DNA of 64,000 bases, taken from positions 67,946 through 131,945 of the forward strand of contig JADJQR010000011.1 in assembly GCA_016712675.1 (NCBI GenBank). Direction: 5' to 3'. Position 1 is the first letter of the stretch. Each line of letters starts with the position of its first letter. The translations under genes and the position numbers were made by a program. Shown in pieces: positions 31,380-53,560 of this stretch. This stretch comes from a bacterium. Its GTDB lineage: Bacteria; Krumholzibacteriota; Krumholzibacteriia; LZORAL124-64-63. The notes beneath the pieces were generated by a model. The model did not search any database and was not told the DNA's origin. It saw only the letters and a program-made list of their open reading frames with translations.

Positions 31380-31961
31380 ATGAAACCCGAACCGGCCCCC
31401 GCCGACCCCGCCGCCCTCGCCTGGCAAGCCGCCGCCCGCCGGCGCGCGGCCGAAGCCTTCGGCGGCCACCTCAAGTGGACCGCCATCGCGGACGCGCTGG
31501 CGGCGTTCTTCTTCCGCCCCGAGCGCCCGCCGCTGCGGTTCACCGACATGGAGGCGATCGCGGGCGCGCTGAACGCCCGGTTTGCGGGCGACGCCGGATC
31601 GTTCCGGTTCGACTGGCAAGACGTGCGCGTGACGCTCAATTTGCTGGGCGATTTGGCGGATTGCGTTTTTCGGCGATTCGACCCCGATACCGGCCTGCCG
31701 CTCGACGAGGTGCCGGCCGAGGTCGTCGGCCTCCTGATCGGGGCATTGGGCCAGGCGGGGCCGGAGGGCGAGCGCGCCCGCGAGGCGCTGCGGCGGATCA
31801 CCATCGATTGGCGGCCGGTCGCCGCCGCGCGCGAGGCGGCCCTTGCCCCGGCCGGACCCGGCGGGATACTGGAACCCTCTTCCACCGCTGGAGCGCCGGG
31901 CCATGCAACTCGACACCCTGATCATCGGCAGCCCCAAAGGCAGGCCGGCCCATCATTTTAA
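31380..31961 (+). CDS. hypothetical protein
   Basis: ATG at 31380. The 3' end runs through cassette copy 6 and overlaps the ATPase start by 59 nt, so the true stop/function is uncertain. Confidence 0.4.
   Translation: MKPEPAPADPAALAWQAAARRRAAEAFGGHLKWTAIADALAAFFFRPERPPLRFTDMEAIAGALNARFAGDAGSFRFDWQDVRVTLNLLGDLADCVFRRFDPDTGLPLDEVPAEVVGLLIGALGQAGPEGERAREALRRITIDWRPVAAAREAALAPAGPGGILEPSSTAGAPGHATRHPDHRQPQRQAGPSF
31843..31870 (+). promoter_or_regulatory. conserved promoter-like cassette copy 6 (TTGCCC-N16-GATACT, followed by GGAACCCTCT)
   Basis: Upstream of ATPase paralog 1. Confidence 0.4.
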
Positions 31962-33012
31962 AAACCTCGAAGACCTCGCCCTCGATTTTGGGAGCGGTCG
32001 CGGGGTGACCGCGCTGGTCGGCGAAAGCGGGACCGGCAAATCCAGCATCCTGGAGGCGCTGGCGGTGATTTTTCGCGACCTGATGCGGGGATCGCCAGAA
32101 CCCGCCTTCGCCTATCGGCTCGCCTATCGCATGGGCGTTGGCCCGCGCGGTCATCTCGTCCGGATCGACGCGGACCCGGATCGCGACAACCCCTACCGCA
32201 TCACCGCTTGCGACGCGCCGGCGGCGCAGGACGAACCGGCCGACCCGGCCGGGGGCGCACCCCTCACGCTCGCCGAGGTTCTGGCGGCGAGCGCGACGCT
32301 CTTGCCGCGCCGGGTAATCGGCTACTCGCCGGGGGCGAGTTCCCAATCGGGCGAGATGCGCGGCCACGAGAGCGACGGCGAACGCCAAAAGCGGGCGGTG
32401 CTGGACGCGCTGCGCCAAGCCGCCGACGGCGAAAGCCTGATCTTGCTCGACGGTCCCGACTCCCACTTGCACCCGCAGGACCGCAGGATTCTCGCGGCCA
32501 AGCTGACCGCTTTCGCGGGCGCGGGCGGCACGGTGCGGGCGCCGGGCCACATCGTGGTGGCCACCCACGAGCCGATAACGGTCGGCGGGCTACGGCGCGA
32601 GCAAGTCCGCATCCTGCGCCGCGAAGGCCAGCGCACCGTGGTCGATATGCCGGACGAGCACCCGCAAGGCATGGGCGTGACCGGCTTGCTGAAAAGCGAG
32701 CTGTTCGGCCTCTCGTCCACGCTGGATATAGAGACCGAACGGCGACTGCTGCGCCGCAACGCATTATTCGTCAAACAGCCGCGCAGCCCGGAAGAAGGCG
32801 CGGAGCTGGCCCGGCTTTCCGCCGAACTGGCCGATTTGGGTTTCTCCAGCGCCGATTTCCGCGATCCGATGTACGCGCTGTTCGCGCGCAAGATGGCCGA
32901 GCGCCGCCAGTTCTGCCAACCGGCGCTCACCCCAGAGCAGCGCGCCGAGCAGGATCGAATCGCCAGCGAAATTATCGACGAGGTCCTGCGCGAGGGCGCG
33001 GCCTCAATGTAA
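31903..33012 (+). CDS. ABC/SMC-like AAA ATPase, paralog 1
   Basis: Walker A ALVGESGTGKSSILEAL, Walker B/D-loop LILLDGPDSHLHPQD and H-loop VVATHEP. It aligns along its full length with the 57876..58994 ORF. Confidence 0.7.
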   Translation: MQLDTLIIGSPKGRPAHHFKNLEDLALDFGSGRGVTALVGESGTGKSSILEALAVIFRDLMRGSPEPAFAYRLAYRMGVGPRGHLVRIDADPDRDNPYRITACDAPAAQDEPADPAGGAPLTLAEVLAASATLLPRRVIGYSPGASSQSGEMRGHESDGERQKRAVLDALRQAADGESLILLDGPDSHLHPQDRRILAAKLTAFAGAGGTVRAPGHIVVATHEPITVGGLRREQVRILRREGQRTVVDMPDEHPQGMGVTGLLKSELFGLSSTLDIETERRLLRRNALFVKQPRSPEEGAELARLSAELADLGFSSADFRDPMYALFARKMAERRQFCQPALTPEQRAEQDRIASEIIDEVLREGAASM

Positions 33013-33298
33013 GCGTCCAACCTAGGCCGTCTGGACGATTGGGCCGAGCGCGCCGAGACTGCGAGGAGCGGCTGCGCGGGACCTCCGCTGGACGGGAAGG
33101 AGCGGTCATGGCAGAGCAGATAGTCATCGAATCCGGGACGGACCGGATCGAGGTTCGGCGACGCGAGCCGCCAGCGTCCGCCGAAAAGCGGTCGCCTTTT
33201 ACCCGAACCTCAAACCGAACCCTCGATGTACACCCATGTGTTTATTGAAATCGAATGGCGTGTTAAATTGTCGTTAATCCCATTCTGGAACTCCTTCA

Positions 33299-33535
33299 AT
33301 GCCGACGACGAGAGCCTTCAAAAACGGAAACTCGCAAGCGGTTCGGATTCCCGCCGAACTGGCGTTCGAGCGGACGGACATCGAGCTGGAAATCGAGCGG
33401 GTCGGGGCCGAGCTCCGGATTCGTCCCGCGCGCCGGTCCCTCTCCGGGGTGCTGGGCAAATTCGCGCGATTCTCGGCGGAGGTCATGGCGCACGGGCGCG
33501 GCGAGCACGAGCAAGCCGAGCGCGAGGGCGGCTGA
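33299..33535 (+). CDS. vapB: VapB/AbrB-type antitoxin
   Basis: MPTTRAFKNGNSQAVRIPAELAF is the SpoVT/AbrB swapped-hairpin signature. The stop overlaps the vapC ATG. Confidence 0.8.
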   Translation: MPTTRAFKNGNSQAVRIPAELAFERTDIELEIERVGAELRIRPARRSLSGVLGKFARFSAEVMAHGRGEHEQAEREGG

Positions 33536-33942
33536 TGCCAAGGTACATGCTCGACACCAACATGTGCATTTACCTGATGAAAAACCAGCCCGAGCCCGTC
33601 GCCCGGCGCTTCGCCGAATGCTACGTGGGCGACGTGGTGATCTCGGCGGTGACCTACGCCGAACTGGAGTACGGGGTCTCCGTGGCCGACGACCCCGAAA
33701 AGGAGCGGTCGCATCTGGCCGCCTTGGTGGAGGACATCCCGGTCGCGCCCTTCGACCGCGCGGCGGGCCGCGCTTACGGCCCGATCCGCCAGGCGACGCG
33801 CGAGAGCCGCAAGGATCACCTGGACAAGCTCATCGCGGCGCACGCGGTTTCGCTGGACGCGGTCCTGGTCACCAACAACCTGAAGGATTTCGCGAAATAT
33901 CCCGGCCTCAAAACCGAAAACTGGGCGGTCGAGCCTCCGTGA
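33535..33942 (+). CDS. vapC: VapC PIN-domain toxin
   Basis: MPRYMLDTNMCIYLMKNQP...ISAVTYAELEYG...AHAVSLDAVLVTNNLKDF carries the four PIN acidic positions. Confidence 0.85.
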   Translation: MPRYMLDTNMCIYLMKNQPEPVARRFAECYVGDVVISAVTYAELEYGVSVADDPEKERSHLAALVEDIPVAPFDRAAGRAYGPIRQATRESRKDHLDKLIAAHAVSLDAVLVTNNLKDFAKYPGLKTENWAVEPP

Positions 33943-34111
33943 GACGGTTGAGCGCCTCCGGTCGGATCACCGCGCGGGCGGTTCCGGCGCCCCGGGCGAA
34001 ACCGACGCTCGAGCTTGGCAAGAAGCGCCCAATGATCCCCCTTCACGAACGACCCAATTTGCGGCTCGCCATTTCGGATGGTGATCGCGGACCCGACGGA
34101 ACGCGCCGCGG

Positions 34112-37100
34112 ATGACGGCACCCGAAAACGCCGGTTCCAACAATACTCAACCGCGCTTGGCCATTTGCACGGCGCTTCCCCACGAACTCGCGGCATGTCA
34201 ATTGATGTTTGACGACCTTGCGGAGGTCAACCCTCCCTGCGCCGACGACGGGAACCAATATTGGTATGGAACCCTGCCCAGCCGTGCGGATGGCTTACCC
34301 CACCCAGTGTTGCTGACCTCGCTGGCTAAGATGGGCAACAACGTCGCGGCGGCAGCCATCACGAATCTCGTTCGAAGCTTCCCGTCTGTCGAGCACGTCC
34401 TCATGGTCGGCATCGCCGGAGGTGTACCCGACCCGCGAAGCCCCGCAAACCATGTTCGGCTCGGGGACGTGGTGGTCAGCAACGAAAAGGGCGTCCTGCA
34501 ATACGACAACGTCAAAATGACACCCGGCGAAATCGAGATTCGCGACACTTCGCAAAAACCGGGCGCCGCCTTGATCGCGGCCGCCAAGGCTTTGGAAGCG
34601 CAACGCATTCTTGGTTTTTATCCTTGGGAGACGCATCTCAAAAGGGCCGAGCAGCACCCAGATTTTCGGCGGCCTGCGTGCAAAACCGACGTACTGCACG
34701 ATCTCCAAGATCAGTCTAAAAAAATCCGACATCCGAAAGACTCCTGGCGGACTCGACATCCGACAAGTCCGAAAATTCATTTGGCGGCTATTGGATCGGC
34801 AAACACCCTTCTCAAGGATGCGGCTCGGCGAGACCAGTTACGAGATGGATACGGCGTTCGGGCCATCGAAATGGAGAGCTCTGGAACGGCGGATGCCGCC
34901 TGGAGCGCAGGACGAAATTACCTGGTGATCCGTGGAATCTGCGATTACTGCGACATCCATAAAAACGATGATTGGCAATACCATGCAGCGCTGGTGGCCG
35001 CCGCCTACGCGCGGGCCTTGATCGAAAACCTCCCCTCTTATCCACCGCACCAAGCTTACGATGCGGGTCTGACCGGATCCCCAGCGCTCGATAAAGCCAA
35101 TGCCCGATCCGTCGTCCGGTCGGCGGAAACCGCCATCGAGCAGCTTCAATCGGAACTCGGCGAGGTTTATGCCGGGCAACTGGAAGCGATCGTCGAACAG
35201 CGAGGCCGTGGCGATTTCGATGCGGCTGAGAACGCGCTCAATTCTGCATTGGCGGAACTGGCAGACAAAAACGTACCCGATCAAGTGAAAGCTCGCTTTT
35301 ACTACCAAGCCGCGCGCTGGTCGCAGGAGGATGGGAAACCGGCTTCGCCGCACGCAAGATATCACCGGTCGGCCATGCGCCTCGACCCGAACTTTGACGA
35401 TCGAACCTATCGCGCGTTCGAAGCGGTCGCGGCCGGGCGCCTCGACGACGCCATCGCTATCTTGCGCCCCTTCGATACGGAATCGGTGGTCCTCAACTTG
35501 TGCCGCCATTTGCTGGATGCCGGGCGATCGCCTGAAGCGGAGGGTTTATTGGAACCCCCGGAGACTCCCCTCACCGATGAAATTCGGCGTCTGCGCGCGC
35601 TGTGTCGTTTGGCGTCGGCCGATCCCGAAGGGGCTTGGCGGATGCTTGAGCCGGCGATGCCCGCTCAAAAGGGCAATCCGCTCTTTCAATTGACGGCGGG
35701 CTATATCGCCTTTTGGCGGGCTATACCCGAAGAACTCCGAAAATCGAAGCTGGGGCCAGCGCTTTTTCAGCCGGGCACCATTTCGCTCGATGCGGAGCGC
35801 GCCCGATGGGCCAGCGAATCCCTCGAATTCTTTCTCGCCGCCCTTGCTCTGGTGCCGGCCCATTCGACGAACGAACTGTGGCGACCCGCCAGGGATGCGG
35901 TCCTCGCCGCGGGCATTCTGCTTCCAGAACACCGCGCCAAAACCGCCGAGAGAGCGAAGTCGTCCCTCGCCCACGATCCCGTCGAATCGGTTCCCGCGTG
36001 GTGTTTGCTCCTGTTGGGAACCGATTACGACTGGACCCGCACGCTCGAAGCCTTGATCGCTATTTGTCGCGAGCCCTATCCCCCGTTGTGGGCCCTGGAT
36101 CTGCTGACCGAACTGCTGCTCAAAACGGGCCAGCCGGAGTCGGCCTGGCAGCATCTGGAAAAATTCCGGTACCGCTACTCGACGGACGACGAAAAAGGTT
36201 GCTGGTTCGAACGCGCGATCCGTTGTCTCGGGCCGCTGGGTCGGCTCGCGGAGTTGGAGCCGAGCCTGGCGGTTTTGGGCGATAGCGTCGATCACCGTCG
36301 CTTGCAGGCCGCTTACTGGAACGCGTGCGGGAACATAGAAAGAACCCTCGTCCTGGCGAAAGGTTTGGCGCGGGAACCCGGCGAGCTGATCGACCACGTG
36401 AATTTGATCCATCTTTACGGCCGGCAGCTGATGTGGAAAGAGGTGACAGCTGCGGCCGACGGTTGCCTGCGCCGGTTCGCGGGCGCGCCCGCCGAAGTCG
36501 CCGACGCCCTTGTCCGCGCCCGGCTGGAGCTAAGCGATCCGGCGGTGGCTTCAGAAATCTTGCAAGCTTACCGATCAGCGTATGAACGCGATGGAATGCT
36601 CGACGATTATCATGCGCGTTGCCTGTCGGTTTACGGGGTTACGGGCGATCACCAAAAAGCGTTCGACGCCAGCGAATTCCTGTGGGCGCGCCACCCCACC
36701 GAGCAGCTGTTGACGCGGCGCGCGCACCTGCAATTTCTTTTGGGCGAGACGCCGAGCGCCTTGGAAATACTGAAACAGGGCTTTGAGCAAGGGTACCAAA
36801 CGCCTGAAATTCTGATAGCCATCGCCCGGCATTGCTTGAGCCAGAGCCGTGAGGAAGCGTTCATGTGGGCGCAGCGAGCCGTTGACCTTTTTCCGGTTGA
36901 TCCGCAAGTCCGCGCCAGTGCCATGGAAATCGCTTTCGATGCCGGTCATGGCGACTGGGCGTCCGCGCAGCTGACCACCCTCACGGAGGATTTCCCCGAT
37001 AGCGGTTTTCTCAAAGCCGTGGACGCGCCGACCGTATTGGAGTGGCTGCGCGCGCAACAAGCCCAAAACGCCACACACGGGCAAGCGTTCGCCGAAGGCC

Positions 37101-40100
37101 GATACCCGTTTCATCTCTGGGTTGACAGCGTGAACGGAAATCTCGGCGCCGAATTCTACTGGCGCTGGCACGTCAACCGAGAACGGCCACCGCGCGCGCG
37201 CGCGTTTTTTCCGTTGGCTTTTGGCGGCCGGCCGGCGACCTCGCAATTCGCCGAGTGGAAAGGCGCCGCGTTGATCATGGATTACACGGCCTGCTTGTCG
37301 GCTCACCTGCTCAAGCTTTACCCGTCTTTGGAAAACGCGCTGGACGAAATTTTCGTCCCGCCCTCTTTGTTCGCGATCGTTCAAACCGAAATCCTGCGTT
37401 TGTCGCAGAGCCAAACCGACCGAATCGAACAGGCCGAGGCGTTGCTTGCCTGGCTGGAAAAAGGCGCTGTTACGCTTCTGCCAGCCCCAGACCTGGAAGC
37501 GGGCGACTTTTCGGGCCTACAGCACGCGGATCGCATCAAATGGCGGTTGGCGGAGCAACGCGATCTGCGGATTGTCGACGATTGTTTCGCGACCGAACTG
37601 TTCCAGACAGGGGAGATCCCCCCCGCGCTCGATGCGTTGCGAATCGCTGAAACGGCTGTCTTGGACGCGCTGCAATCCTCCGGCGATTTAATCCTTGAAG
37701 AGCAAGGAAGCACGAGGCCTTCTGATCGGGTATCGCCGGCCTCGGGCGACGCGAAACTCGAATCGGGGGCCGCTCTCCTCGTTGACCGCCCGTTCTTGGA
37801 GCGACTACTCGATTTAGACGGGCTCGATGCGACGGCCGCTCACTTCAGGCTGTTTTGCATCAGCCATGTTTGCGAACAACTCCGCGACGAAATCGAACAA
37901 GCTCGCCGCCGCGGGAAAATCAGGGCGTGGTTAGAGCGATTGCTCGCCGAGCTCAAGCGTTTGCGGTCAAACGGAAAGCTCAAAACGCTGACCGTTCGGC
38001 ACCCGCCCGACCAATCCGATGCCCATCAGGTTTTGCACCACGAGCTGACAGAACTTTTATCCGGTGCGGAAGATTCAAGCCATCCGGTTTGGATCGACGA
38101 CCGCATGATGAGCAGTCACTCCGCACTTGGCCATCGTTCCCCGATTGTCGGCATCCACGACATCGTGGATCTCCTGCGGGTGCGACGGGCGATCACAGAG
38201 GGAAAGTATCGCGAATGCCATCGGGAGATGATCCGTTCGGGCGTCGGCTGTCGGCTGCCTCCGCCGGACTACCTGCTTGACGAGCTAAAACAGGTTCCGT
38301 TCGATCCAAACGCAGGAGTGTTGGTCGAGAGTTCGGCGCTATCGCGGCTACGCCAAAGCGTGGCGGCGATCTTGGCCTCTGACGCGCTTGGGAAAATGCC
38401 CTTGCGCCCGGGCACAATGTCAGAAGCGATGCAATTCAAACTGGCGTTGCAGCGTTTGATCGACGACGCGATGGCGATGATTTGGCTGGCGGCTGACCTG
38501 GAAGATCGGCGACGCGCCGCGATGGCGGATTGGCTCTTTGAATGCTTTTTTCCAAACGGTGCCCGTTTTGTCAGCTTTGAGGGTTTCGAAAGCGATTTGC
38601 TCAAGGGCCTGGCGTTCGAACACTGCTTTCGAATTTATTTGGGCTGGCGTTTTATGCGGCAACCTCGCGTCGCAAAAGCCTATTATTCTTGGCTCTTTGA
38701 CCGCTTGTGGCCGGCATGGCAAACCCATCCGAACCTGTATGCTTCCGTTTTAGAGCATTTGTCAGAATCCGTTTTTCAACATTTGAAAAATTTCTCTGCG
38801 CGCGCGAACGGCGAGCTATGGGTACAAGCGTTCGTTGATCCCTTGATCCATTTCCCGCCCGACCTGCTCAAAATCATAGTCTTTCATCGAAAGCTCAAAC
38901 CCTTGCTCCAACCTCATTTCACCGTGGGCATGCGGGTTGACGCATTCGACTTGTTTATCCCGAAAAGCCAATGGACCGATCTGCTGAACGCTTGTATCGA
39001 ACAGGAAAAACCGGTATCGATCACGTTAAATGAGCGATCGATCGACGGTGAATTTAGAGCCGGTGGCGGCGTGGGGGATCTCCTGATCCTAGCCGGCGAG
39101 ACGGCGAACGGCGAACGGGTCGAGATCCACTTTCTCGTCCCTTATGCGCGCTTGAACCATCGGTCGGCGCAGCACCGCCTCGCGTGGCTGGGCGATTTGG
39201 AAGATGCCGCGCTTCTGGACCCTGGAGTCGCGGTTCAGTGGCGCGAGGCCCTCGAAGAGCACAAACCGGTTACCGCGATGGAGGCTCTTCGCGAAGCGTG
39301 CGAGCGTTCCCCGAAGTTTTTCTTTGCTCGCGCGGCCTTGGCGCTCACTACACCGAAGTCGGAGACTCTCGATTGGAGCGACGTCCTCCCCGATCGCCGC
39401 GAGATTCTCGACGCGGTAGCGCCTTGCGGCGAGACTGGTGAAGCGGTCACGCATAGCCTCGTTGCCCGCGACGGGTCTATCGCCGAGATCGCGGCATCCG
39501 TCACACCGCTCGCCGTCTTCCCCTGGGGGCCTCCCGACGATCTGGCGACGAAAATTCTGAGCGAGGTTTGTAGCGACACCGCCTGTTCTGAAGCTTTGCG
39601 AAACGTGGTCGAGGATCTTGCCCGCTCCAGCTTCAATCCGGTGGTGTTGGAAAACGTGCTGGCCTTATTCCTCCGAGCGCCTGACGGATTTGATCGAGCG
39701 CCCTTCGACAAACTCGTGCGCAATCTTTTGGCGGTTGCTCCAGAGGCCCCGTATGCGGAGGCATTCGATCTTTATATCGAGTTGCTACATTTGATTTGGA
39801 ACCATTTTCGGCTGATGCCCGAGTTCGGTGACCAAGGCTACGAACAGCGCGTGATTTGGGCCTACACCTACGCTGACAAAATGCTGGAAAATCTGATCGA
39901 TCGAGCATCGGATGTTCGGGGGTGCTTGGCAGGCGCCGCCGGAGCGATCAAGGCAATTAACCGCGAACTCGAAAAGCGAGTGAACCCGTTTGGTGAATAC
40001 GGGCCGGAAGTCGATGCGGATGTCACGCTCCCGTGCGAGGCATCGCGGTGGAGAATCGCGATCGGCGGCACTTTGAGTATCATCAAACGCGACGTCGCGG

Positions 40101-40807
40101 TGATTGACCCCATCCGAAAGAGCGTGCTGGACGCTCTGGAATTGTTTCTGAACGAATTAAATCGACGCGATGTGTTAACGTGGCCTGGAACGGAGTGCTT
40201 CGCGTTGTCGGATTTGCCGGGCGGCCCCAAAAACAGCCCGTTAAACAATCGAGGTTGGGACACCGCTTTGGAGCTTCATGCCCTGCTCTCCGGCCAAAAA
40301 GAGCCTCCCGATACTCAGCTCCACGATGTCTGGTTGGCTGCTCTGGACCAACAGGATCTGGATGTCATCGGCGGCTTTTTTCTTTTCGTAGCCCGCTATC
40401 CTATACCGGCCGACAAACAAAAATCGCTCATCGAAATAGCCGAAAAATGCGTGTGCGATCATGCGTTCAATCCAGGTACAAAACGATTTTATTGGAGCGT
40501 CGCATCTTTGCTCTCATCTTTGACCGATCAAACCATAATGGATTTGCGGGATAGCCTTCTCCAGAGAGCCTTTTCGGCTGTTGACGCGGATCACTCCCTC
40601 TGGATCGATGTCTGCGAATTGGCATTTCGGATCGGCTATCTAAAATCTTCGGAAGAAAGGGTTAACCATTTTTTAGCCACCCTGCAAAAAGTGGCATCAA
40701 TACTGCCGGTCGATTCTAAAGAATATGGAGCTTTCTTGTCTTTCAAGCGGCGCATAGAAGCTCAACTACCGCTGTGGGCCTACCCAAGGTTGTGGAATGT
40801 AGCGTAG
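34112..40807 (+). CDS. giant (2231 aa) protein: N-terminal nucleoside phosphorylase-fold (PNP_UDP_1-like) domain, TPR-like repeats, and a long unassigned C-terminal region
   Basis: Uninterrupted ORF with normal amino-acid composition and GC visibly lower than the backbone. The N-terminal motifs LMVGIAGGVPD, RAIEMESSGTA and VIRGICDYCD match the phosphate-binding, EME and catalytic-Asp motifs of MTA/AMP-nucleosidase-type folds. Residues ~340-1000 are helical-repeat (TPR-like). I found no Walker A. Confidence 0.85.
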   Translation: MTAPENAGSNNTQPRLAICTALPHELAACQLMFDDLAEVNPPCADDGNQYWYGTLPSRADGLPHPVLLTSLAKMGNNVAAAAITNLVRSFPSVEHVLMVGIAGGVPDPRSPANHVRLGDVVVSNEKGVLQYDNVKMTPGEIEIRDTSQKPGAALIAAAKALEAQRILGFYPWETHLKRAEQHPDFRRPACKTDVLHDLQDQSKKIRHPKDSWRTRHPTSPKIHLAAIGSANTLLKDAARRDQLRDGYGVRAIEMESSGTADAAWSAGRNYLVIRGICDYCDIHKNDDWQYHAALVAAAYARALIENLPSYPPHQAYDAGLTGSPALDKANARSVVRSAETAIEQLQSELGEVYAGQLEAIVEQRGRGDFDAAENALNSALAELADKNVPDQVKARFYYQAARWSQEDGKPASPHARYHRSAMRLDPNFDDRTYRAFEAVAAGRLDDAIAILRPFDTESVVLNLCRHLLDAGRSPEAEGLLEPPETPLTDEIRRLRALCRLASADPEGAWRMLEPAMPAQKGNPLFQLTAGYIAFWRAIPEELRKSKLGPALFQPGTISLDAERARWASESLEFFLAALALVPAHSTNELWRPARDAVLAAGILLPEHRAKTAERAKSSLAHDPVESVPAWCLLLLGTDYDWTRTLEALIAICREPYPPLWALDLLTELLLKTGQPESAWQHLEKFRYRYSTDDEKGCWFERAIRCLGPLGRLAELEPSLAVLGDSVDHRRLQAAYWNACGNIERTLVLAKGLAREPGELIDHVNLIHLYGRQLMWKEVTAAADGCLRRFAGAPAEVADALVRARLELSDPAVASEILQAYRSAYERDGMLDDYHARCLSVYGVTGDHQKAFDASEFLWARHPTEQLLTRRAHLQFLLGETPSALEILKQGFEQGYQTPEILIAIARHCLSQSREEAFMWAQRAVDLFPVDPQVRASAMEIAFDAGHGDWASAQLTTLTEDFPDSGFLKAVDAPTVLEWLRAQQAQNATHGQAFAEGRYPFHLWVDSVNGNLGAEFYWRWHVNRERPPRARAFFPLAFGGRPATSQFAEWKGAALIMDYTACLSAHLLKLYPSLENALDEIFVPPSLFAIVQTEILRLSQSQTDRIEQAEALLAWLEKGAVTLLPAPDLEAGDFSGLQHADRIKWRLAEQRDLRIVDDCFATELFQTGEIPPALDALRIAETAVLDALQSSGDLILEEQGSTRPSDRVSPASGDAKLESGAALLVDRPFLERLLDLDGLDATAAHFRLFCISHVCEQLRDEIEQARRRGKIRAWLERLLAELKRLRSNGKLKTLTVRHPPDQSDAHQVLHHELTELLSGAEDSSHPVWIDDRMMSSHSALGHRSPIVGIHDIVDLLRVRRAITEGKYRECHREMIRSGVGCRLPPPDYLLDELKQVPFDPNAGVLVESSALSRLRQSVAAILASDALGKMPLRPGTMSEAMQFKLALQRLIDDAMAMIWLAADLEDRRRAAMADWLFECFFPNGARFVSFEGFESDLLKGLAFEHCFRIYLGWRFMRQPRVAKAYYSWLFDRLWPAWQTHPNLYASVLEHLSESVFQHLKNFSARANGELWVQAFVDPLIHFPPDLLKIIVFHRKLKPLLQPHFTVGMRVDAFDLFIPKSQWTDLLNACIEQEKPVSITLNERSIDGEFRAGGGVGDLLILAGETANGERVEIHFLVPYARLNHRSAQHRLAWLGDLEDAALLDPGVAVQWREALEEHKPVTAMEALREACERSPKFFFARAALALTTPKSETLDWSDVLPDRREILDAVAPCGETGEAVTHSLVARDGSIAEIAASVTPLAVFPWGPPDDLATKILSEVCSDTACSEALRNVVEDLARSSFNPVVLENVLALFLRAPDGFDRAPFDKLVRNLLAVAPEAPYAEAFDLYIELLHLIWNHFRLMPEFGDQGYEQRVIWAYTYADKMLENLIDRASDVRGCLAGAAGAIKAINRELEKRVNPFGEYGPEVDADVTLPCEASRWRIAIGGTLSIIKRDVAVIDPIRKSVLDALELFLNELNRRDVLTWPGTECFALSDLPGGPKNSPLNNRGWDTALELHALLSGQKEPPDTQLHDVWLAALDQQDLDVIGGFFLFVARYPIPADKQKSLIEIAEKCVCDHAFNPGTKRFYWSVASLLSSLTDQTIMDLRDSLLQRAFSAVDADHSLWIDVCELAFRIGYLKSSEERVNHFLATLQKVASILPVDSKEYGAFLSFKRRIEAQLPLWAYPRLWNVA

Positions 40808-40938: not shown

Positions 40939-41271
40939 ATGCCGGAGCGGACGGTCATCGGATCGGGGGTGATCCGAGTGGACGCCCCGGGCCGACGGCA
41001 GTACAGCGTCGAGTTCAAACGGCGGCTGGTTGAGCTGGCGCTGGAACCGGGGCCGCCGGTGGCGGGGATCGCACTGGCGCACCGGATCAACGCCAACCCG
41101 GCTGGACGCGAGCCAGCGCCCCCTAAAACGGCCGCCGCTCGTCGGCGAAAGGTACACGCATCCTGGGGCAGCGGCGCGCTGCGCAACCGCGTATCGTTTC
41201 CGGCGCGCGACACCGAGCCGAAGCAGTCGCGACTGGCGTCTCGCAGCACCACCACCGGTTGCTACAAATAA
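40939..41271 (+). pseudogene. IS3/IS66-type transposase helper (HTH OrfA) remnant, frameshifted
   Basis: RRQYSVEFKRRLVELALEPGPPVAGIALAHRINAN matches transposase OrfA N-termini. Similarity is lost after INAN and no partner ORF follows. Confidence 0.4.
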
Positions 41272-43040
41272 GCCAACAGACGGTCGAGGCACCGTCGGAT
41301 GAACGCTTCCAACCCGCGATTTCGTTCGATCAACGGCACGAGGCGGGGGGCTAGCGCATAATAGCCGTCGACGAGGCGGCGACCTATCCAAGAGCGACCC
41401 AATGTCCGATCTCGCCACAGTCGCAGCGCGAGGGTTTCGGGAGCCTGCGGCCCGTAGACCGCGGACGCGATAAAACAGTGTTGGGTGTTACAAGCGCGCG
41501 TTGCAGGCGTTGAAGATCTGGCATTGCCGGCAGGTTGATGGGCCGGCGAGGCCACCGGGGCCGGCGGCGGATTTCCTTTCATGGCCCGAAGCGTGGTTTG
41601 ATTCGCGGTGACGCGCGCGCGGGATGATGTCGTCGGCCGAGCGGACATGGCCCGACCGCCGCGCATCTCCCGCAACACTTCCCGATTGGTGTCGGACGGG
41701 AGCGAACCCGCATCCGGCGATCTCGCATCGCCCAACCGAAATAGCGCTTCCGCCTCGGAAATCAAATGAAGCTGGTTCGCGCGAATGATGCTGATCGACA
41801 GGTGCGAATAAAGAAATTTCGGATTTTGATACGGCGGTTCCAGCAGGCCGACCGCGCTGATCCAGCGCCCGATCCAGCCGGCGTCCGGGCGGTGCGCCAG
41901 CGCGGACAACCCCTGATGCCAGATGCTGATTTTGACGATGTGGCCGCGCCAGTGCCCGAAATTTATAAAGACGTAGGGCCTGCCTTGACTCGTCTTCGCT
42001 TGTTTGACCTCCACGATCTTGCCGACCAGCTCGACCCGATCACCGACATAAGGGCGGCATATCGCATAGTGGGCCGCGTTCAGAACGGGGAACGCCGACA
42101 GATAGCGCGCCGGCGCCGCGACCGACCGTGGCGTCGCGACACGCGGAACGTTTTTCCCGGCGAGAAAATCTTCCAGGGTCGGAACGGCCGCGAAATCCGC
42201 TTGGCACACGGCCGCGAAACGCCTCGCGTCATCCGCGCAGTGGGGCTGCCCGAACAGCCGATCAAAAAGATGCGATCGCGCCGGGTCGGCATAATCGTTC
42301 GCCTTGAAAAGCACCGCGTCGCCATCGGATTGGGTTTGACGCCACAGCGCCGGTTGCGTTTCCAGGGCGAGAAGCGCGCAGTGGAGGGCGATGAAGGAAA
42401 AGCGGTCGAGCCGCGCGTCCCAGGCGCCCGCGGCCCGCTGGGGATGCTGGAAATTTCGGTGGCCGAGTTCGGCGCCGCCGAGCGAGGCGAGCGCCTCGAC
42501 AAACATGCCGTCATAATCGATCAGCTGAAGCGAGCGGCCCCCGTCCGATACCATGACGTTTCCGGGTTGGACGTCGCCGTGCGCCAGCCGCTCCGACTCC
42601 AGCAGCGCGGCGAGAGCTCGGAGCGAGGCGCGGACCTGTCGGAGTACATTTTTGTCGGCGTGAAACTCCTCCAAAAACTCGCCCAAGGTTTTCCCGGCCG
42701 CCCACGTCATTTTGACCAGAGGAAACAGGTCGCCATCGACCCGAATGCCGCGCGCTTGAAACTCGAAATCCAGAAAATGCGGGGAACGCAGCGCGCGCAA
42801 GCGACCGGAAATCGCCCGGTAGCGCTGCTCGAGCGCGTGAGATTGTTTGTGAAAACAGCGAACGGCGAATTTTGCCTGCCCGACTTCGAGCGTGTAGGTC
42901 AGCGCGAAGCCCCCGCACAGCGCGAGCGGCAACCCCAAGCCCGTCGTGACGACCGTTCCCCGCCGCAGCTCCGGGTCGATCAGCGCCGTTTGCGGGTGCT
43001 GAAGCGCTTCGTTATATCGCTCGAGCGTCGGGTAGCTCAC
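41262..43040 (-). CDS. Ser/Thr protein kinase of a TerY-type triad, with a C-terminal OB-like region and a Cys-motif tail
   Basis: Kinase motifs FAVRCFHK (VAIK-like), LAHGDVQPGNVMV (HRD-like), IDYDGMF (DFG-like). The tail is CNTQHCFIASAVYGPQAPETLALRLWRDRTL... GTG start. Confidence 0.8.
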   Translation of the reverse strand: MSYPTLERYNEALQHPQTALIDPELRRGTVVTTGLGLPLALCGGFALTYTLEVGQAKFAVRCFHKQSHALEQRYRAISGRLRALRSPHFLDFEFQARGIRVDGDLFPLVKMTWAAGKTLGEFLEEFHADKNVLRQVRASLRALAALLESERLAHGDVQPGNVMVSDGGRSLQLIDYDGMFVEALASLGGAELGHRNFQHPQRAAGAWDARLDRFSFIALHCALLALETQPALWRQTQSDGDAVLFKANDYADPARSHLFDRLFGQPHCADDARRFAAVCQADFAAVPTLEDFLAGKNVPRVATPRSVAAPARYLSAFPVLNAAHYAICRPYVGDRVELVGKIVEVKQAKTSQGRPYVFINFGHWRGHIVKISIWHQGLSALAHRPDAGWIGRWISAVGLLEPPYQNPKFLYSHLSISIIRANQLHLISEAEALFRLGDARSPDAGSLPSDTNREVLREMRGGRAMSARPTTSSRARVTANQTTLRAMKGNPPPAPVASPAHQPAGNARSSTPATRACNTQHCFIASAVYGPQAPETLALRLWRDRTLGRSWIGRRLVDGYYALAPRLVPLIERNRGLEAFIRRCLDRLLAYL

Positions 43041-43773
43041 GTTCGCATCTCTCCACCAGCACCAGCGTGATCAGCGTCGTATCGTCGACTCGCAAGGCTT
43101 TCGTCCGCCGCTCGTCGAGCACCAGGGCTTCAAAATCGGCTGCCCGAGCGATGCCGGCGAGCCTCTCCCAGACGGGCCGGCCTTCTTCCTCACGCCGCAG
43201 CGCCCACTCGCCGAGCGCATCGGTCATGCAAAGCACCACCGGCCTTTCCCGATCCGAGTAGCGCCACGTCCGGTGGTGTCGAATAAAAAAATCGGGCGCG
43301 TTGAAAAAGTCGTTCAGCGCGCCATCCGTGCCGAACAGTTCGGGGCGTCGTTGGAACTCTGCCGCGCGTTCGTAGGGAAACGAGGCGACCCGCTCGTTTC
43401 CGTCCAGCAGCACCGCCAAGCTGTCTCCCACACACACGATATCGACCGTTTCGCGCTCGACGCACTGCTCGACGCCCAGCAGCGTCGCGAAGCTGCCCCG
43501 GTCGAAGGCCGCCTGTCGGGACCAGGACATCCGCCCGCGATCATGGTGGCCGCGATAATCGGTGACGGCCCGATCGAGCCAATCCGCCGTCAGCGCCGGA
43601 TCGCGCACGAAACCGTCCACCAGCCGGTTAGCCCACGTTTTGGAATCAAACGATTCGGAAGCGCCGTCGCTCAACGCCGCCAATCCGATCTCGATCGCCA
43701 GCCGGTAAGCGTCTTCCCCGGCACCCGGATCGGACGGCTCTTTGGCCACCTGACCCGCAAAGCGCGCCTTCAC
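43012..43773 (-). CDS. PP2C-family protein phosphatase
   Basis: GEDAY..., LSDGASES, CVGDSLAVLL and MTDAL resemble PP2C/SpoIIE metal-binding motifs. It sits between the vWA and kinase genes. GTG start at 43773. Confidence 0.65.
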   Translation of the reverse strand: MKARFAGQVAKEPSDPGAGEDAYRLAIEIGLAALSDGASESFDSKTWANRLVDGFVRDPALTADWLDRAVTDYRGHHDRGRMSWSRQAAFDRGSFATLLGVEQCVERETVDIVCVGDSLAVLLDGNERVASFPYERAAEFQRRPELFGTDGALNDFFNAPDFFIRHHRTWRYSDRERPVVLCMTDALGEWALRREEEGRPVWERLAGIARAADFEALVLDERRTKALRVDDTTLITLVLVERCERELPDARAI

Positions 43774-43783
43774 ATCGCGGCCG

Positions 43784-44614
43784 TTAGCGCAACTGGGCCG
43801 CGCGCGTGCCGATATCGAAAAAATCCACCATTTGGACGGCTTCGGCGTTGAACATAAAACCCCGCGACTCCAAGCCCACCTTAAAACCCTTGTCTTGCGC
43901 GAACCGGATAAGATGTTCGGGCAAGAGGCTCGACATGCGGAAAAGCAACCGGGCGTACGCATCGGGCAAACCCGATTCGGAGACCGGAAACTCGATCGGC
44001 GAAGCGCCCGAAGCGCTGACGTGCAAGTTGAACAACAAGACGGGTCCATCGGCGGTCTGAATTTGGCGGAGCTGCGCGGCGAGGGTTTCCGGATCGCCGT
44101 CCGTCGATTCGCCGTCGGTGATGTGCAAGACCGTGGGCGGATAGCTGTCCGGATGGGTGTCGCTCCACTCGACCAGCGCCTCCGCCGCTCGCGTGATCGC
44201 CCGGCACATCGGCGTGCCGCCGCTCGCTTGCGGCTCGAACCAAACCGGGAACTTGATTGTTTGCATGACCAATCCTCCCGCGCCGTCATCCACCTTTTTT
44301 CGGCGATCCTCGACCCGCAACGGCGAAGCCTCCAAAGCGGAAATGGGATGAAGGATGGCCGAGCCGAGCGGCCCTTGAACGCCGTTATAGGCGTCCTCGC
44401 CGCTGTAACCGATGACCCCGACTTCGAAATAGTCGCGCGTCCCCTCCGCCTTGGTGCAACGGGTGATGAGGGTGGCCAACGTCCGGTTGAGAACATCGGC
44501 GACGTGTTGCGCTTTCGAGCGCTCCGACGACATCGCGTCGGCCATCGATCCGGACTGGTCGATCAAAAAGAGAAACGCCGTCGGGTGGCTACGACTGATT
44601 TCCGCCGTGTACAT
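43784..44614 (-). CDS. TerY-like von Willebrand factor A protein
   Basis: MYTAEISRSHPTAFLFLIDQSGSM (MIDAS DxSxS), GGTPMCRAI and LHITDGESTD. GGAGGA lies 6 nt upstream of ATG 44614. Confidence 0.8.
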   Translation of the reverse strand: MYTAEISRSHPTAFLFLIDQSGSMADAMSSERSKAQHVADVLNRTLATLITRCTKAEGTRDYFEVGVIGYSGEDAYNGVQGPLGSAILHPISALEASPLRVEDRRKKVDDGAGGLVMQTIKFPVWFEPQASGGTPMCRAITRAAEALVEWSDTHPDSYPPTVLHITDGESTDGDPETLAAQLRQIQTADGPVLLFNLHVSASGASPIEFPVSESGLPDAYARLLFRMSSLLPEHLIRFAQDKGFKVGLESRGFMFNAEAVQMVDFFDIGTRAAQLR

Positions 44615-45502: not shown

Positions 45503-45985
45503 TTGATCGTCAGCAACACCTCGCCGATCATCAATCTGGCCTGCATCGGCCGGCTCGACCTATTGCCCGCCCTGTTCGGCGAGATCACCATCCCCGAGGC
45601 GGTATTCCACGAAATTGCCGTTATCCAGCCGGGCGCGCCGGGCGCCTCGGAGGTGCGAGCGGCCTCTTGGATTCGCCGTCACGCCGTCGGCAACCGGCCC
45701 TTGGTGACCTCGTTGCGCTTGGAGCTCGACTCCGGCGAAGCGGAAGCGATCGCTTGCGCGGTGGAAGCCAAGGCCCGTTTGCTGTTGATCGACGAGCGCC
45801 GCGGCCGCGCGGTCGCCCAACGCCTGGAATTGGCCACCACCGGCTTGATGGGCGCGCTATTGCTGGCGCGCAAAAGAAACCTGATCGAGTCGATCCGCCC
45901 CTTATTGGACGACCTCCGCCATGTGGCCGGATTCTGGATCGGCGACGCCCTCTACTCGAAGGTGCTGCGCGATGCCGGGGATTGA
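45503..45985 (+). CDS. DUF3368 PIN-like toxin-like protein (copy 2)
   Basis: IVSNTSPIINLACIGRLDLLPALFGEITIPEAVFHEI...SGEAEAIACA...DERRGRAVAQRLELATTGLMGALLLARKRNLI. TTG start. Confidence 0.75.
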   Translation: MIVSNTSPIINLACIGRLDLLPALFGEITIPEAVFHEIAVIQPGAPGASEVRAASWIRRHAVGNRPLVTSLRLELDSGEAEAIACAVEAKARLLLIDERRGRAVAQRLELATTGLMGALLLARKRNLIESIRPLLDDLRHVAGFWIGDALYSKVLRDAGD

Positions 45986-46283: not shown

Positions 46284-47033
46284 TTATTCGGAATCAAAAC
46301 TTGTCAATGGTGGCTCGTCGTCTTGATCGATTAGGCTCTTCCCAGTTTGGGCCGATGCCGGCGCCTGAATTTCCAGCTCGGTCATAAATTCGCGCTCCAA
46401 CTCGATCATACTTTGCAACCGGCTCGCGAGCACGCTTTCCATTTTATCGGGATTGTTGAGGGCGTCGCCTAACGGACAGGGCAACAGGTGCGACTCAAGA
46501 AAGTCCTGTCCATGATCCTGAATCTTTCGTAACAGGGTGCGCGCCTGGCCAGGTTCTTCTCCAAAAACATTAAACATTCGATTGGCTGGGCTGGATCTCA
46601 ATGACGGGGAGCCAACCCAGAGGGTCCGCATGGCCTCGGGTCCATTGCGAGCGAAATCATCGGCGATGGCCGCCACATTTTTGTGCTCGCCGTTCGGCTC
46701 GACGACTCCGTGGCGAGCCAGCAGGCAAAGCAGGGTTCGCACTCGGGCACTGCGCAGATCATAGCGTTCGGGAAACGGCTCTGTCGGGGTATTCCAGGGA
46801 AGGTGCTCCAGCCTCTCCGGAACCGCAGATCCCTGCTGGGTCACCTTGCGAGCCTGATCGCGCAGTTCGGCGAGTACCGCAGCATAACGGGACGGGTTCC
46901 CCTGGCCGAACCAACTGGCAAACCCGGTCAGCCAGAGCCAGCGCCGCAGCAGTTTCCTGGCGGCTTCGCCGGGATTCGGGTCTTCCCCGAGCCAGGCGCT
47001 CAATCCCACCAGTTGCAAGCCATAGGGCAACAT
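46284..47033 (-). CDS. hypothetical protein, possibly the 5'-truncated C-terminal part of a larger gene
   Basis: 249-aa ORF with normal composition. No RBS or N-terminal domain is recognisable. AT-rich junk lies upstream. Confidence 0.35.
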   Translation of the reverse strand: MLPYGLQLVGLSAWLGEDPNPGEAARKLLRRWLWLTGFASWFGQGNPSRYAAVLAELRDQARKVTQQGSAVPERLEHLPWNTPTEPFPERYDLRSARVRTLLCLLARHGVVEPNGEHKNVAAIADDFARNGPEAMRTLWVGSPSLRSSPANRMFNVFGEEPGQARTLLRKIQDHGQDFLESHLLPCPLGDALNNPDKMESVLASRLQSMIELEREFMTELEIQAPASAQTGKSLIDQDDEPPLTSFDSE

Positions 47034-47388: not shown

Positions 47389-47985
47389 ATGAACACGCTG
47401 CCCAAGACCATCCTTCTACAAGCGCGCTCCCTCCCCGAGGGCGGCGTACTGTCGCCCAAGGAGTTCTTGCACCTGGGTAGCCGGTCGGCGGTGGATCAGG
47501 CGTTCTCGCGTCTCGCCAAGGCCGGCACGCTGCTGCGCGTGGCGCGGGGCGCCTATGCCGCCCCAATCTCCAGCCGCTTCGGCTCGCGCGCTCCCGCGCC
47601 CGAGAAGGTCGTCAAGGCTCTAGCCGAACAAAGCGGCGAAATCGTCGTGCCGCACGGCGCCAACGCGGCCAATGCGCTGGGCCTGACGCAGCAGGTGCCG
47701 ATCCGCGAGGTCTATCTGACATCCGGCCGGACCCGCAAGCTGAAGCTCGGGCGTTCCGAGGTGCTGGTGAAGCATGCGCCGCGCTGGATGCTCGCCCTGG
47801 GCACGCGACCGGCTGGCGCGGCCGTGCGCGCGCTGGCCTGGATCGGACCCACACACGCCGGCCAGTCGCTGGCATCGCTGCGCCGTACCCTTCCCCGTTC
47901 CGAATGGCAGGCGCTGGCCGCGGCACGTGCGACGCTGCCCGGCTGGATGGCACAAGCCATCGGCGAGGAAGCCGCGCGTGGCTGA
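47389..47985 (+). CDS. abiEi: AbiEi-type (type IV TA) antitoxin
   Basis: GVLSPKEFLHLGSRSAVDQAFSRLAKAGTLLRVARGAYAAP is the AbiEi wHTH pattern. It overlaps the AbiEii start. Confidence 0.75.
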   Translation: MNTLPKTILLQARSLPEGGVLSPKEFLHLGSRSAVDQAFSRLAKAGTLLRVARGAYAAPISSRFGSRAPAPEKVVKALAEQSGEIVVPHGANAANALGLTQQVPIREVYLTSGRTRKLKLGRSEVLVKHAPRWMLALGTRPAGAAVRALAWIGPTHAGQSLASLRRTLPRSEWQALAAARATLPGWMAQAIGEEAARG

Positions 47986-49000
47986 GTATTTCTTTGACCT
48001 GAGCAAGAAGGATCAACGCGAAGCGCTGGAATACGGGCGAGCCGAAACCGGCCGCCCCGTCCACTTGCTCGAAAAGGACGTGTGGGTGGTGTGGACACTG
48101 CGTGCCTTGTTCGAGTCGCCACTGTCGGCCCACTTGACCTTCAAAGGCGGCACGTCGCTGTCGAAGGTCTACAAGGTCATCGACCGCTTCTCCGAAGACA
48201 TCGACCTGACCTACGACATCCGAACGCTGATCCCGGACCTGATCGGCGAAGGCGGCGAGCTGCCGGCAAGCCGCAGTCAGGCTGGCAAATGGACGCAAGC
48301 TGTGCGGCATCGACTGCCGACCTGGATCACGCAAGACGTGCAGCCAGTGATTCAAGCGGCGTTGGCCCATGAGCGATTGAGCGCACGACTTGAACTCGGC
48401 GGCCAAGACAACGACAAACTGCTCTTGCACTATCCTGCTCAGGCACAGGGCACGGGATACGTGGCACCTGTCGTCACCTTGGAGTTCGGCGGCCGAGCCA
48501 CTGGCGAGCCGCATCAGGTATTCCCGGTCGCTTGCGACATCGCGGCCCACCTGGCCGCCGTGTCTTTCCCCGTCGCCTCACCACTGGTTATGAGCGTCGC
48601 GCGGACCTTTTGGGAGAAGGCTACGGCTGCGCATGTGTTCTGCGCGCAAGGCCGCATCCGCAGCGAACGCTATGCGCGGCACTGGCACGACCTGGCCGCG
48701 ATCGCTCGAAGCCCTCATTTCGCAGCCGTGATCGCGGATCGTGCGGTGGCCGCCGCCGTCGCCCGCCACAAGTCGTATTTCTTCATCGAGAAGGATGCGG
48801 ATGGCCGAGTCATCGACTACGGGGCCGCGACCACGGGGCATCTGAAAATCGTCCCCGAAGGCGAGGCTAAGGCAGCTCTCGCCAAGGACTACGCGGCCAT
48901 GCTGGCAGACGAAGTGATGGTGGGCGATGCCCTATCCTTCGATGAACTGTTAAAGGCATGTGCTGACCTGGAAGCCAAGGCGAACAGGGCTGCCGTGTAG
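47978..49000 (+). CDS. abiEii: AbiEii/DUF1814 nucleotidyltransferase toxin
   Basis: LTFKGGTSLSKVYKVIDRFSEDIDLTYD is the signature NTase motif. The GTG start at 47978 overlaps the abiEi stop. Confidence 0.8.
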   Translation: MAEYFFDLSKKDQREALEYGRAETGRPVHLLEKDVWVVWTLRALFESPLSAHLTFKGGTSLSKVYKVIDRFSEDIDLTYDIRTLIPDLIGEGGELPASRSQAGKWTQAVRHRLPTWITQDVQPVIQAALAHERLSARLELGGQDNDKLLLHYPAQAQGTGYVAPVVTLEFGGRATGEPHQVFPVACDIAAHLAAVSFPVASPLVMSVARTFWEKATAAHVFCAQGRIRSERYARHWHDLAAIARSPHFAAVIADRAVAAAVARHKSYFFIEKDADGRVIDYGAATTGHLKIVPEGEAKAALAKDYAAMLADEVMVGDALSFDELLKACADLEAKANRAAV

Positions 49001-50872: not shown

Positions 50873-50875
50873 ATC

Positions 50876-52864: not shown

Positions 52865-53560
52865 CGTGCAGTCCCCCGGTTGAAGAACAACGGCTGATAG
52901 GGCCGCAGCACCAGATCGCGCTTGACGATGATGCGCACCGGCAGGCCTGGCCGCTCGGTCAAGGTCGGCTGGACGTTAAGTTTGCGCCGGGTCACTTCCT
53001 GCCCGACTTGGTTCACGCTGTCCTGCAAGCTGTCCCGCCCGGCGATGATGACGCGATTGCCATCCTGCCGGTTCTCCGGCGCAGCCAGCTCGGCGCTGAC
53101 GCCCAGCAGCGTCGTGAGTGTGCCGCGCCGGCGAAGATGCGATCCCAATGCCAATCGACACCATCCTCCAGGCCGGCGTAGTCGGCCGGATCGGTGCCCA
53201 TAAGGTTGTCGAGCGCCGGCGAAGACGTGTCCGGCAGGATGACGCGGTTCCACAACACCTGCACCCGGCTTTGCCCGTAGCTGACCTGGCTATTGTAGCG
53301 CCCGAAGATGCGCGAACCCTGCGGGATCAAGAGGAAGCGCCCGGTCGCTGTGTCGTAGACCGGCTCCGTCACCGTGGCGATCACGTCGCCCGGCAAGTCC
53401 GACTTGATGCCCGTGACCAGCGCGCCGGCGATCCCCGTGCCGGCCATGACCTGGTACGGCGACGCGGGCAGCGTCAGACTCCCAGAATTACGGGTTTCCG
53501 TGGTTCCGCCTTTCTGGAACGCCTCTTTCTGGTCTTGCCGGTTCTGCTGAGAAGTCGGGT
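52861..53560 (-). pseudogene. trbI: trbI/virB10 remnant (N-terminally truncated, frameshifted)
   Basis: Two frames together read ...YQVMAGTGIAGALVTGIKSDLPGDVIATVTEPVYDTATGRFLLIPQGSRIFGRYNSQVSYGQSRVQVLWNRVILPD...YAGLEDGVDWHWDRIF // LLGVSAELA...RDSLQDSVNQVGQEVTRRKLNVQPTLTERPGLPVRIIVKRDLVLRPY. The frame break is near 53130. Confidence 0.7.

Follow-up and report, generated by a model that had tools for sequence, protein, structure and literature searches.

The gene considered here lies at 34112..40807 (+) of a 64,000-nucleotide (nt) stretch of contig JADJQR010000011.1 (positions 67,946 to 131,945 of the forward strand; NCBI GenBank assembly GCA_016712675.1), from a bacterium of the Krumholzibacteriota; the whole of this stretch is called the window below. 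It encodes a single giant protein of 2231 amino acids (aa) whose domains are, in order, a PNP head, a TPR array, a helix-turn-helix (HTH) domain, two PIN-like domains, a helical domain, a permuted-GreAB-C-like β-domain and a helical tail of ~540 aa. That it is a defence protein of a family related to the TPR-GreA/B-C-PIN (TGP) systems, with the PNP domain as its effector, is held with good confidence. The combined statement, that it is a stand-alone abortive-infection protein lacking a nucleoside triphosphatase (NTPase), that it belongs to a giant branch related to TGP and that it acts by the steps proposed below, is favoured on balance, though less firmly. If it is true, one polypeptide both senses infection and destroys nucleotides, and does so without the ATP-driven switch of NLR and Avs proteins.

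The open reading frame (ORF) is intact and ATG-initiated, and its coordinates include the stop codon; the assignment comes from the ORF list, the translation and the full-length homologs, which are 43-65% identical to the 2231-aa protein and cover 98-100% of it. It is the longest among the ORFs listed for 28000-58000, in agreement with an earlier reading of the DNA made from its letters without database searches (the sequence-only reading), which had placed one 2231-aa ORF here and called it the window's largest gene. The same reading put the gene in a low-GC accessory island directly after a vapBC pair, and this too is what is found: the gene is inside a stretch of ~60% GC (about 33-56 kb) within surrounding DNA of 70-80% GC, and an antitoxin gene and a PIN toxin gene are directly upstream. 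GC content at third codon positions (GC3) is 0.65 in the giant gene versus 0.93 in the adjacent γ-glutamyltranspeptidase (GGT) gene and, taken with the low-GC stretch, this composition indicates that the giant gene was acquired horizontally.

The PNP head

The head (aa 16-306, 34157..35029; all domains described below are, like the gene, on the + strand) has the nucleoside phosphorylase/nucleosidase fold PNP_UDP_1, as assigned from Pfam, PADLOC and residue conservation. Pfam PF01048 (PNP_UDP_1) matches aa 16-303 (E 5.6e-13), and the three motifs that the sequence-only reading had picked out in the first ~320 aa are present: MVGIAGG at aa 98-104, IEMESSG at aa 252-258 and IRGICDY at aa 273-279. 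The candidate catalytic residues are E25, E253-M254-E255 (nt 34868-34876) and D278 (nt 34943-34945). Their conservation was followed in an alignment of 15 full-length family members, the window protein and 14 homologs at 20-65% identity. G100-G104, E253, M254, E255 and D278 do not vary at all, and E25 has a conservation of at least 90%, so the Asp/Glu positions, whose variation among homologs would have counted against a catalytic head, are kept. Aligned with the MTA/SAH nucleosidase 4g41, the EME and D motifs fall on its active-site motifs, and we take them to be the catalytic Glu/Glu/Asp of the MTAN-type fold.

By its sequence matches the head resembles immune and not housekeeping PNPs, since the PADLOC 'Effector PN-superfamily' model PDLC00759 matches it (E 2.1e-23), its score on the NCBIfam model for the housekeeping MTAN is 55.7 bits against a cut-off of 169, and its best homologs (45-50% identity) are the heads of NACHT/NB-ARC, TIR, TGP-type and fungal NLR proteins. 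Immune-type PNP domains (Cap17/DtcC) have been demonstrated to be ATP/dATP nucleosidases (bioRxiv 10.1101/2023.01.24.525353). With the immune PNP effectors of that type (in CBASS, Detocs, Avs and fungal NLRs; same preprint) the window head shares the PNP_UDP_1 fold, the intact catalytic Glu/Glu/Asp and the match to the PADLOC effector model; unlike them, it is joined to a core of TPR and double PIN and not to a SAVED, receiver or STAND sensor. By analogy we infer that the head would be a nucleosidase of ATP/dATP or a related nucleotide, and its sequence matches suggest a likeness to the Cap17/DtcC clade. The sequence-only proposal of an effector-plus-sensor conflict protein is supported: the PNP head keeps its catalytic residues and, as described below, the protein has no STAND/NACHT NTPase and its gene sits in a defence island.

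In homolog P0005 (63% identical; ~9240-10230 of the conjugative-element contig L002) the PNP head is split, with aa 2-151 in frame 3 and aa 166-330 in frame 1, so that the gene call starts only at the Met inside the EME motif; this points to a frameshifted head or an assembly error. The entry P0001, 100% identical to the window protein, is recorded from the same EME Met, although in the window the ORF is unbroken.

The TPR array and the absence of an NTPase

Behind the head is a TPR-like helical repeat array (aa ~340-970, 35129..37021) recognised through Pfam TPR families: TPR_19 (E 1.1e-9, four stretches), TPR_4 (E 2.3e-6) and TPR_14 (E 5.3e-5), the matches including aa 438-482 and 866-906 as well as further stretches. 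The TPR-like region that had been placed at aa ~340-1000 from the sequence alone is thereby borne out.

One giant polypeptide with an effector at its N-terminus and a long repeat-rich sensor behind it is also the plan of Avs and bacterial NLR-like STAND proteins with PNP heads, and the PNP heads are homologous. The central STAND P-loop NTPase (NACHT, NB-ARC or AP-ATPase) by which those proteins are defined is, however, absent from the window protein. A pattern search across all 2231 aa found no Walker A or Walker B pattern, and Pfam and NCBIfam searches of the giant protein found no significant NTPase family, the sole match being to AAA_16 (E 0.14) over a stretch, aa 1246-1326, that falls within PIN-like domain 2. 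No region was assigned as an NTPase in the AlphaFold models of aa 1040-2231 and aa 1040-1700, the latter of which (predicted local distance difference test score, pLDDT, 81.9) consists of two PIN-like units, helices and a β-domain. When the core profile was searched against PDB sequences there was no NTPase, and no match of any kind. An ordinary Avs/NLR-like STAND protein whose NTPase has become too divergent to detect, to which the fusion of many of the closest PNP-head homologs to NACHT/NB-ARC NTPases and the one weak AAA_16 match might otherwise point, is largely refuted by these results and scarcely credible. The sequence-only reading had likewise seen no Walker A/B and no STAND/NACHT NTPase, and had left room for a cryptic one; profile searches, patterns and AlphaFold models alike give none, and that candidate is rejected. 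With no STAND NTPase, any oligomerisation switch of the giant protein must work differently from that of Avs and NLR proteins.

HTH, tandem PIN-like and GreAB-C-like domains

To the sequence-only reading, ~1200 aa of the protein were unassignable. This did not stand, as profile methods give an HTH domain, two PIN-like domains and a permuted-GreAB-C-like domain. The HTH domain (aa 974-1040, 37031..37231) is matched by Pfam PF24407 (HTH_upst_double_PIN, "HTH upstream of double PIN"), which scores 33.0 and 36.1 bits (gathering cut-off 27), and the same family is precomputed on most of the full-length homologs. It is directly upstream of the two PIN-like domains.

AlphaFold2 models of the region beyond it were built on small but diverse alignments (aa 1040-2231, pLDDT 68.8; aa 1040-1700, predicted template modelling score, pTM, 0.64, with the pLDDT given above). 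From N- to C-terminus these models have one β-α unit at aa ~1053-1200 and another at ~1221-1400, then a helical domain reaching ~1586, a β-domain, and helices to the end of the protein. The first unit is PIN-like domain 1 (aa ~1053-1200, 37268..37711), assigned from the AlphaFold β-α unit and hhalign; the second, with a long helical insert, is PIN-like domain 2 (aa ~1221-1400, 37772..38311), assigned from PF20698, hhalign and AlphaFold. PF20698 (PIN-TPR-GreABC, "PIN domain associated with the TPR-GreAB-C-PIN system") matches aa 1259-1337 (E 4.6e-6); its score on the window protein, 27.4 bits, is 0.4 under the cut-off of 27.8, and 10 of 12 homologs also match. By hhalign, domain 2 aligns with the canonical TGP PIN at a probability of 97.4% (E 1.4e-11) and domain 1 does so more weakly (85.8%, E 5e-6), and the two domains align with each other at 95.9% (E 6e-9). 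Because both units match each other, the tandem PIN-like domains are, on their profiles, an internal duplication, homologous to the PIN of TGP systems.

The helical domain that follows (aa ~1401-1586, 38312..38869) consists entirely of helices in AlphaFold, with pLDDT mostly 82-94, and found no match in Pfam, in hhalign (canonical TGP proteins included) or in Foldseek. The small β-rich domain after it (aa ~1587-1694, 38870..39193) was delimited from AlphaFold, with six strands and one helix at aa ~1606-1675 (pLDDT ~76-88), and from homology to PF24388 by way of family members. In 22 of 43 sampled members the equivalent segment matches PF24388, 'Permuted GreAB-C' (best E 2.2e-8), and hhalign joins the β-domain profile of the window's subclade to that of the main clade (probability 97.4%, E 1.2e-11). 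The window β-domain can on these grounds be considered permuted-GreAB-C-like, by homology and not by direct match; it has no match to PF01272, and Foldseek gave it weak local Pur-α/Whirly-like or pilin-like matches only.

The C-terminal α-helical region (~540 aa; aa 1695-2231, 39194..40804) is all-helical in AlphaFold, with low confidence around aa 1960-2080. Both its length and its sequence are conserved across the family, and searches with Pfam, PDB sequence profiles and hhalign gave no match. It may be a solenoid that senses a trigger or serves as a scaffold; Foldseek with the aa 1040-2231 model against the PDB gave HEAT/ARM-type solenoids, as non-significant matches only (best E 1.5e-3 at a TM score of 0.12). 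HHpred, AlphaFold and Foldseek had been suggested with the sequence-only reading as a way to resolve this part of the protein, and analyses of that type have done so in part: sequence profiles name the HTH, the PINs and the β-domain, whereas Foldseek names no core domain.

Relation to TPR-GreA/B-C-PIN systems

The TGP system was defined by Kaur, Iyer, Burroughs & Aravind (eLife 2021, PMC8195603) as a constant core of TPR, GreA/B-C and PIN domains, mostly in stand-alone genes, with one of 13 kinds of N-terminal effector, PNPase among them. The hypothesis advanced there is that the protein attaches to hijacked RNA polymerase and cleaves transcripts, with its effector being fired as a back-up. 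The source table of that paper has 41 PNPase+TPR+GreAB-C+PIN entries, the example shown being of 1492 aa, and just one 2304-aa "TM+SIR2+TPR+PIN+PIN+TM" protein, probably from the giant branch. NTPase-free proteins with an effector, TPR, GreA/B-C and PIN were thus already defined in PMC8195603, and the view that the architecture was undescribed, taken in the sequence-only reading, does not hold. Experimental work has been on a short TGP, Agp, which with a Bell-like executioner partner forms the Bab/Agp pair of E. coli ECOR25 and protects E. coli against phage T5 (bioRxiv 10.1101/2024.11.07.622273). Mutations of GreA/B-C residues abolish Bab/Agp defence; a PIN mutant of Agp lost defence, but the protein was unstable; and no Bab-independent (first-tier) activity of Agp was detected (same preprint).

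The window protein is like TGP in being the product of a single stand-alone NTPase-free gene without conserved neighbours, in defence or mobile contexts, and in having a variable N-terminal effector (of a kind, PNPase, listed for TGP) on a constant core with a TPR array between. It also has a PIN of PF20698 type, by the hhalign probability of 97.4% given above, and a GreAB-C-related β-domain in its family. It differs in being ~800-1100 aa longer (2231 versus ~1100-1590 aa), in having the PF24407 HTH before the PIN, and in that the PIN is duplicated, with complementary acidic losses and a PF20698 score just under cut-off. The GreAB-C-like domain comes ~200 aa after the PINs and not before them, and is circularly permuted according to the name of the Pfam model; the ~190-aa helical domain and the ~540-aa helical tail are additions without a TGP counterpart. 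Between the TPR array and the PINs, where the domain that defines TGP would be, Pfam finds no GreA-like domain in the window protein and the HTH is there instead. Because GreA/B-C is absent from that place, the window protein is a rearranged, oversized variant and not a plain member; it represents a branch of the TGP family and not a new kind of system. The names of the Pfam models PF24407 and PF24388 show that their curators have seen the giant form. The giant protein extends the TGP concept, for which validation so far concerns only the short Bab/Agp form; its architecture has a precedent.

A constant core with exchanged heads

The size of the family comes from a search of 1.84 billion representative proteins with a profile of the core (aa 1040-2231). 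Counted as clusters at 50% identity, there are 2013 with E <= 1e-3, of which 744 reach E <= 1e-30; the proteins mostly have 2000-2300 aa, with the core starting near residue 900-1000. Core length is approximately fixed, at 1187-1197 aa in 18 closer homologs that were aligned, and their identity to the window core, where it was measured, is 35-58%; a longer core, of 1217-1276 aa, is found in the five most distant relatives.

What precedes this core of ~1190 aa varies. In addition to the PNP type of the window, the heads include a second PNP type (Methylomonas sp. CM2), α/β-hydrolase, TIR_2, DUF4062, trypsin-like protease, SMEK_N and NNH2, and one common head type has a weak Mrr-like match only. 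A constant core with a swapped N-terminal effector is the signature of prokaryotic conflict systems. With no fewer than 744 clusters at 50% identity the giant branch is large, and the swappable heads that it has in common with established immune systems are TIR, PNP, trypsin, hydrolase and DUF4062, the last an NADase according to a 2026 preprint. BLAST clustering of heads had suggested one dominant type (80 of ~100), and this was rejected as the clustering was confounded by the shared TPR-like lead sequence. A scan of GTDB genomes with a narrow peptide pattern derived from the core gave two loci, both in methanotrophs.

State of the PIN pair and proposed mechanism

In an uninfected cell the rest of the protein would keep the PNP head inactive. 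The module of HTH, double PIN and GreAB-C-like domain would engage nucleic acid or the secondary-channel region of RNA polymerase, as proposed for TGP, and the TPR array together with the C-terminal helices would bind a trigger derived from, or altered by, the phage, with detection possibly at the transcription complex. Binding of the trigger would release or oligomerise the head which, like Cap17/DtcC, would cleave the N-glycosidic bond of ATP/dATP or a related nucleotide; the loss of nucleotides would starve the phage and arrest or kill the cell. The PIN pair may also cut transcripts.

The last of these steps depends on the state of the two PIN copies, for which residue frequencies per alignment column were taken from 138 family representatives. 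In copy 1, D1057 (nt 37280-37282), after β1, is Asp in 134, and D1157, at the distal acidic position, is Asp in 59. In copy 2 it is the residue after β1, D1225, that is infrequently Asp (29 of 138), and the conserved W1327-I-D1329-D1330-R1331 stands out, with D1329 kept in 137, D1330 in 136 and R1331 in 137 (D1329-D1330-R1331 are at nt 38096-38104), as does position D/E1350, acidic in 133. By these columns the losses from the usual four-acid PIN site are complementary between the copies, and the pair may be one composite or partial active site at most, or a binding module only.

It is possible, if not the favoured view, that within the same class of protein the tandem PIN pair is catalytically dead and is only a sensor or scaffold that binds nucleic acid or protein, the swappable head doing all the killing. 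The complementary acidic decay (copy-2 β1 Asp in 29/138, copy-1 distal Asp in 59/138) is what would be expected from this, the head is the part exchanged among classic effectors, which fits the head as the effector, and Agp has no Bab-independent activity in Bab/Agp. Yet D1057, D1329, D1330 and D/E1350 are each kept in at least 133/138, more than a pure scaffold needs, and these four acidic residues could together make a single PIN-type metal site.

The two-tier model of Kaur et al. (PMC8195603) assigns the parts the other way: the core, as the primary defence, would bind hijacked RNA polymerase through the GreAB-C-like domain, the PIN would cut phage transcripts, and the PNP head would be a back-up suicide effector, fired only on failure of this first tier. 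It is the published hypothesis for TGP, the window's PIN-like and GreAB-C-like modules are homologous to those of the family, and GreA/B-C mutations do abolish Bab/Agp defence. Transferred to the window protein it is nevertheless rather unlikely, considering that Agp had no detected first-tier activity, that the GreAB-C-like domain is permuted, comes after the PINs and is not recognisable in the window protein itself, and that the PIN sites are partly degenerate.

The abortive-infection scheme set out at the head of this section, with the PNP head as the nucleotide-destroying effector of a TGP-related giant, also has results that weigh against it. Literature searches, with 'double PIN', PF24407, PF24388 and 'permuted GreAB-C' among the terms, found no paper describing or testing the giant branch. 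The window protein's own β-domain segment has no PF24388 match at E <= 0.1, and there was no hhalign signal between the β-domain and the canonical TGP GreAB-C region, even with a tandem-duplicated profile that allows for circular permutation; since it matches neither, RNA polymerase binding is a deduction at second hand. Foldseek with the aa 1040-1700 model had best E values of 0.2 in the PDB and 0.037 in BFVD, with no PIN in the top 50, and as Foldseek is without a significant match, the PIN and GreAB-C labels come from sequence profiles only. The nuclease activity of the PIN pair is doubtful on the alignment columns, because D1225 and D1157 are poorly conserved.

A wider proposal is offered tentatively. 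The giant proteins with HTH, double PIN and permuted GreAB-C could be a distinct and widespread kind of NTPase-free immune sensor, in which the split PIN pair would form a composite site or nucleic-acid clamp, the C-terminal tail and the helical domain would be a new receptor for phage proteins or hijacked transcription complexes, and the whole would be an analogue of NLR and Avs proteins that switches its head without ATP. The family gives tractable access to how a core of TPR, PIN and GreAB-C-like domains detects phage, possibly through the transcription machinery, and also lets one ask what duplicated, half-degenerate PIN domains do.

Genomic setting

The giant gene sits in a dense defence island, and the homologs are in similar surroundings. 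Seven homolog loci were inspected, and all seven are defence islands or mobile elements, not the housekeeping contexts whose discovery would have spoken against an immune role. One is beside BREX (PglX, PglZ, BrxL), one beside an HsdR fragment, one between HicAB and HigBA toxin-antitoxin (TA) modules and one on a conjugative element; two are in islands bearing an integrase or an insertion sequence (IS). At the seventh (L003) a canonical 1197-aa TGP gene (6323-9916; TPR and PF20698) is immediately followed on the same strand by the giant double-PIN homolog (10001-17098), in an island that also holds integrase, Mrr and SLFN genes. Across the eight loci, the window and the seven homologs, there is no recurrent neighbour gene; with no conserved neighbour, the giant gene would act alone.

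The nearest genes upstream are a VapBC-like pair (33299-33942, same strand as the giant gene; MazE/AbrB-type antitoxin at 33299-33535, PIN toxin within 33226-33942), 170 nt away. An operon partnership with vapBC was rejected, as neighbours are not conserved across the loci. A TA or addiction module formed with this pair, or a housekeeping protein of nucleoside salvage or regulation, neither of them immune, is accordingly a very improbable alternative: the closeness and shared strand of the MazE/AbrB-like gene and PIN toxin would suit the former, and TA genes are near several homologs too, but these vary in type and position between loci with no conserved adjacent gene. Moreover, the head is far under the housekeeping MTAN cut-off, GC3 indicates horizontal acquisition, and the exchange of heads (TIR, trypsin, hydrolase, PNP) is a typical trait of immune proteins. 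A GTG-initiated ORF of 183 aa (33564-34115, +), without a family match, shares DNA with the VapC frame and reaches 4 nt into the start of the giant gene (an ATGA overlap); it is probably a spurious high-GC ORF.

Running PADLOC on the island, as the sequence-only reading had advised, brought out PtuA-like, TerY-P-like, PDC-S70, PDC-M55C, AbiE and Gabija genes. Upstream of vapBC is a PtuA-like ATPase of 389 aa with AAA_21/AAA_15 (31843-33012, +; Septu PtuA models, best E 2e-88). Because its match to the PtuA profile comes in two pieces only, the ATPase may be truncated; a PtuB partner was not identified.

The giant gene has as its immediate downstream neighbours a TerY-P-like kinase and a PP2C phosphatase (41262-44496, -; PADLOC STK_OB E 1e-210, PP2C E 2e-85), which look like defence components of TerY-P type; the PP2C protein has 240 aa N-terminal to its PP2C domain without an assigned family. 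Between the giant gene and the kinase gene ARAGORN calls a 97-nt tRNA-Ala(CGC) at 41051-41147 (-), where Rfam at its gathering threshold finds none; the call is probably false or degenerate, and a tRNA-Ala integration site was rejected. Next come a PDC-S70 candidate, a DUF3368 protein (45503-45985, +; PADLOC E 7e-57), and the C-terminal part of PDC-M55C in a 249-aa ORF (46284-47033, -; PADLOC E 7e-24). They are followed by AbiEi/AbiEii (47389-49000, +), in which the gene for the AbiEi antitoxin/regulator (DUF6088/AbiEi_4, E 1e-65) overlaps that for the AbiEii nucleotidyltransferase toxin (E 4e-97). A complete Gabija pair (49037-52651, +; PADLOC) consists of a GajA-like ATPase with an OLD/TOPRIM domain (49037-50872, +; E 3e-235) and a GajB-like UvrD helicase (50876-52651, +; E 2e-201). 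Near the boundary of the island with high-GC DNA are an isolated TrbI-like conjugation fragment (53013-53624, -) and an IS605-type TnpB (OrfB_IS605 with a Cas12f-like TNB domain; 54713-55990, -), which together suggest a decayed mobile element.

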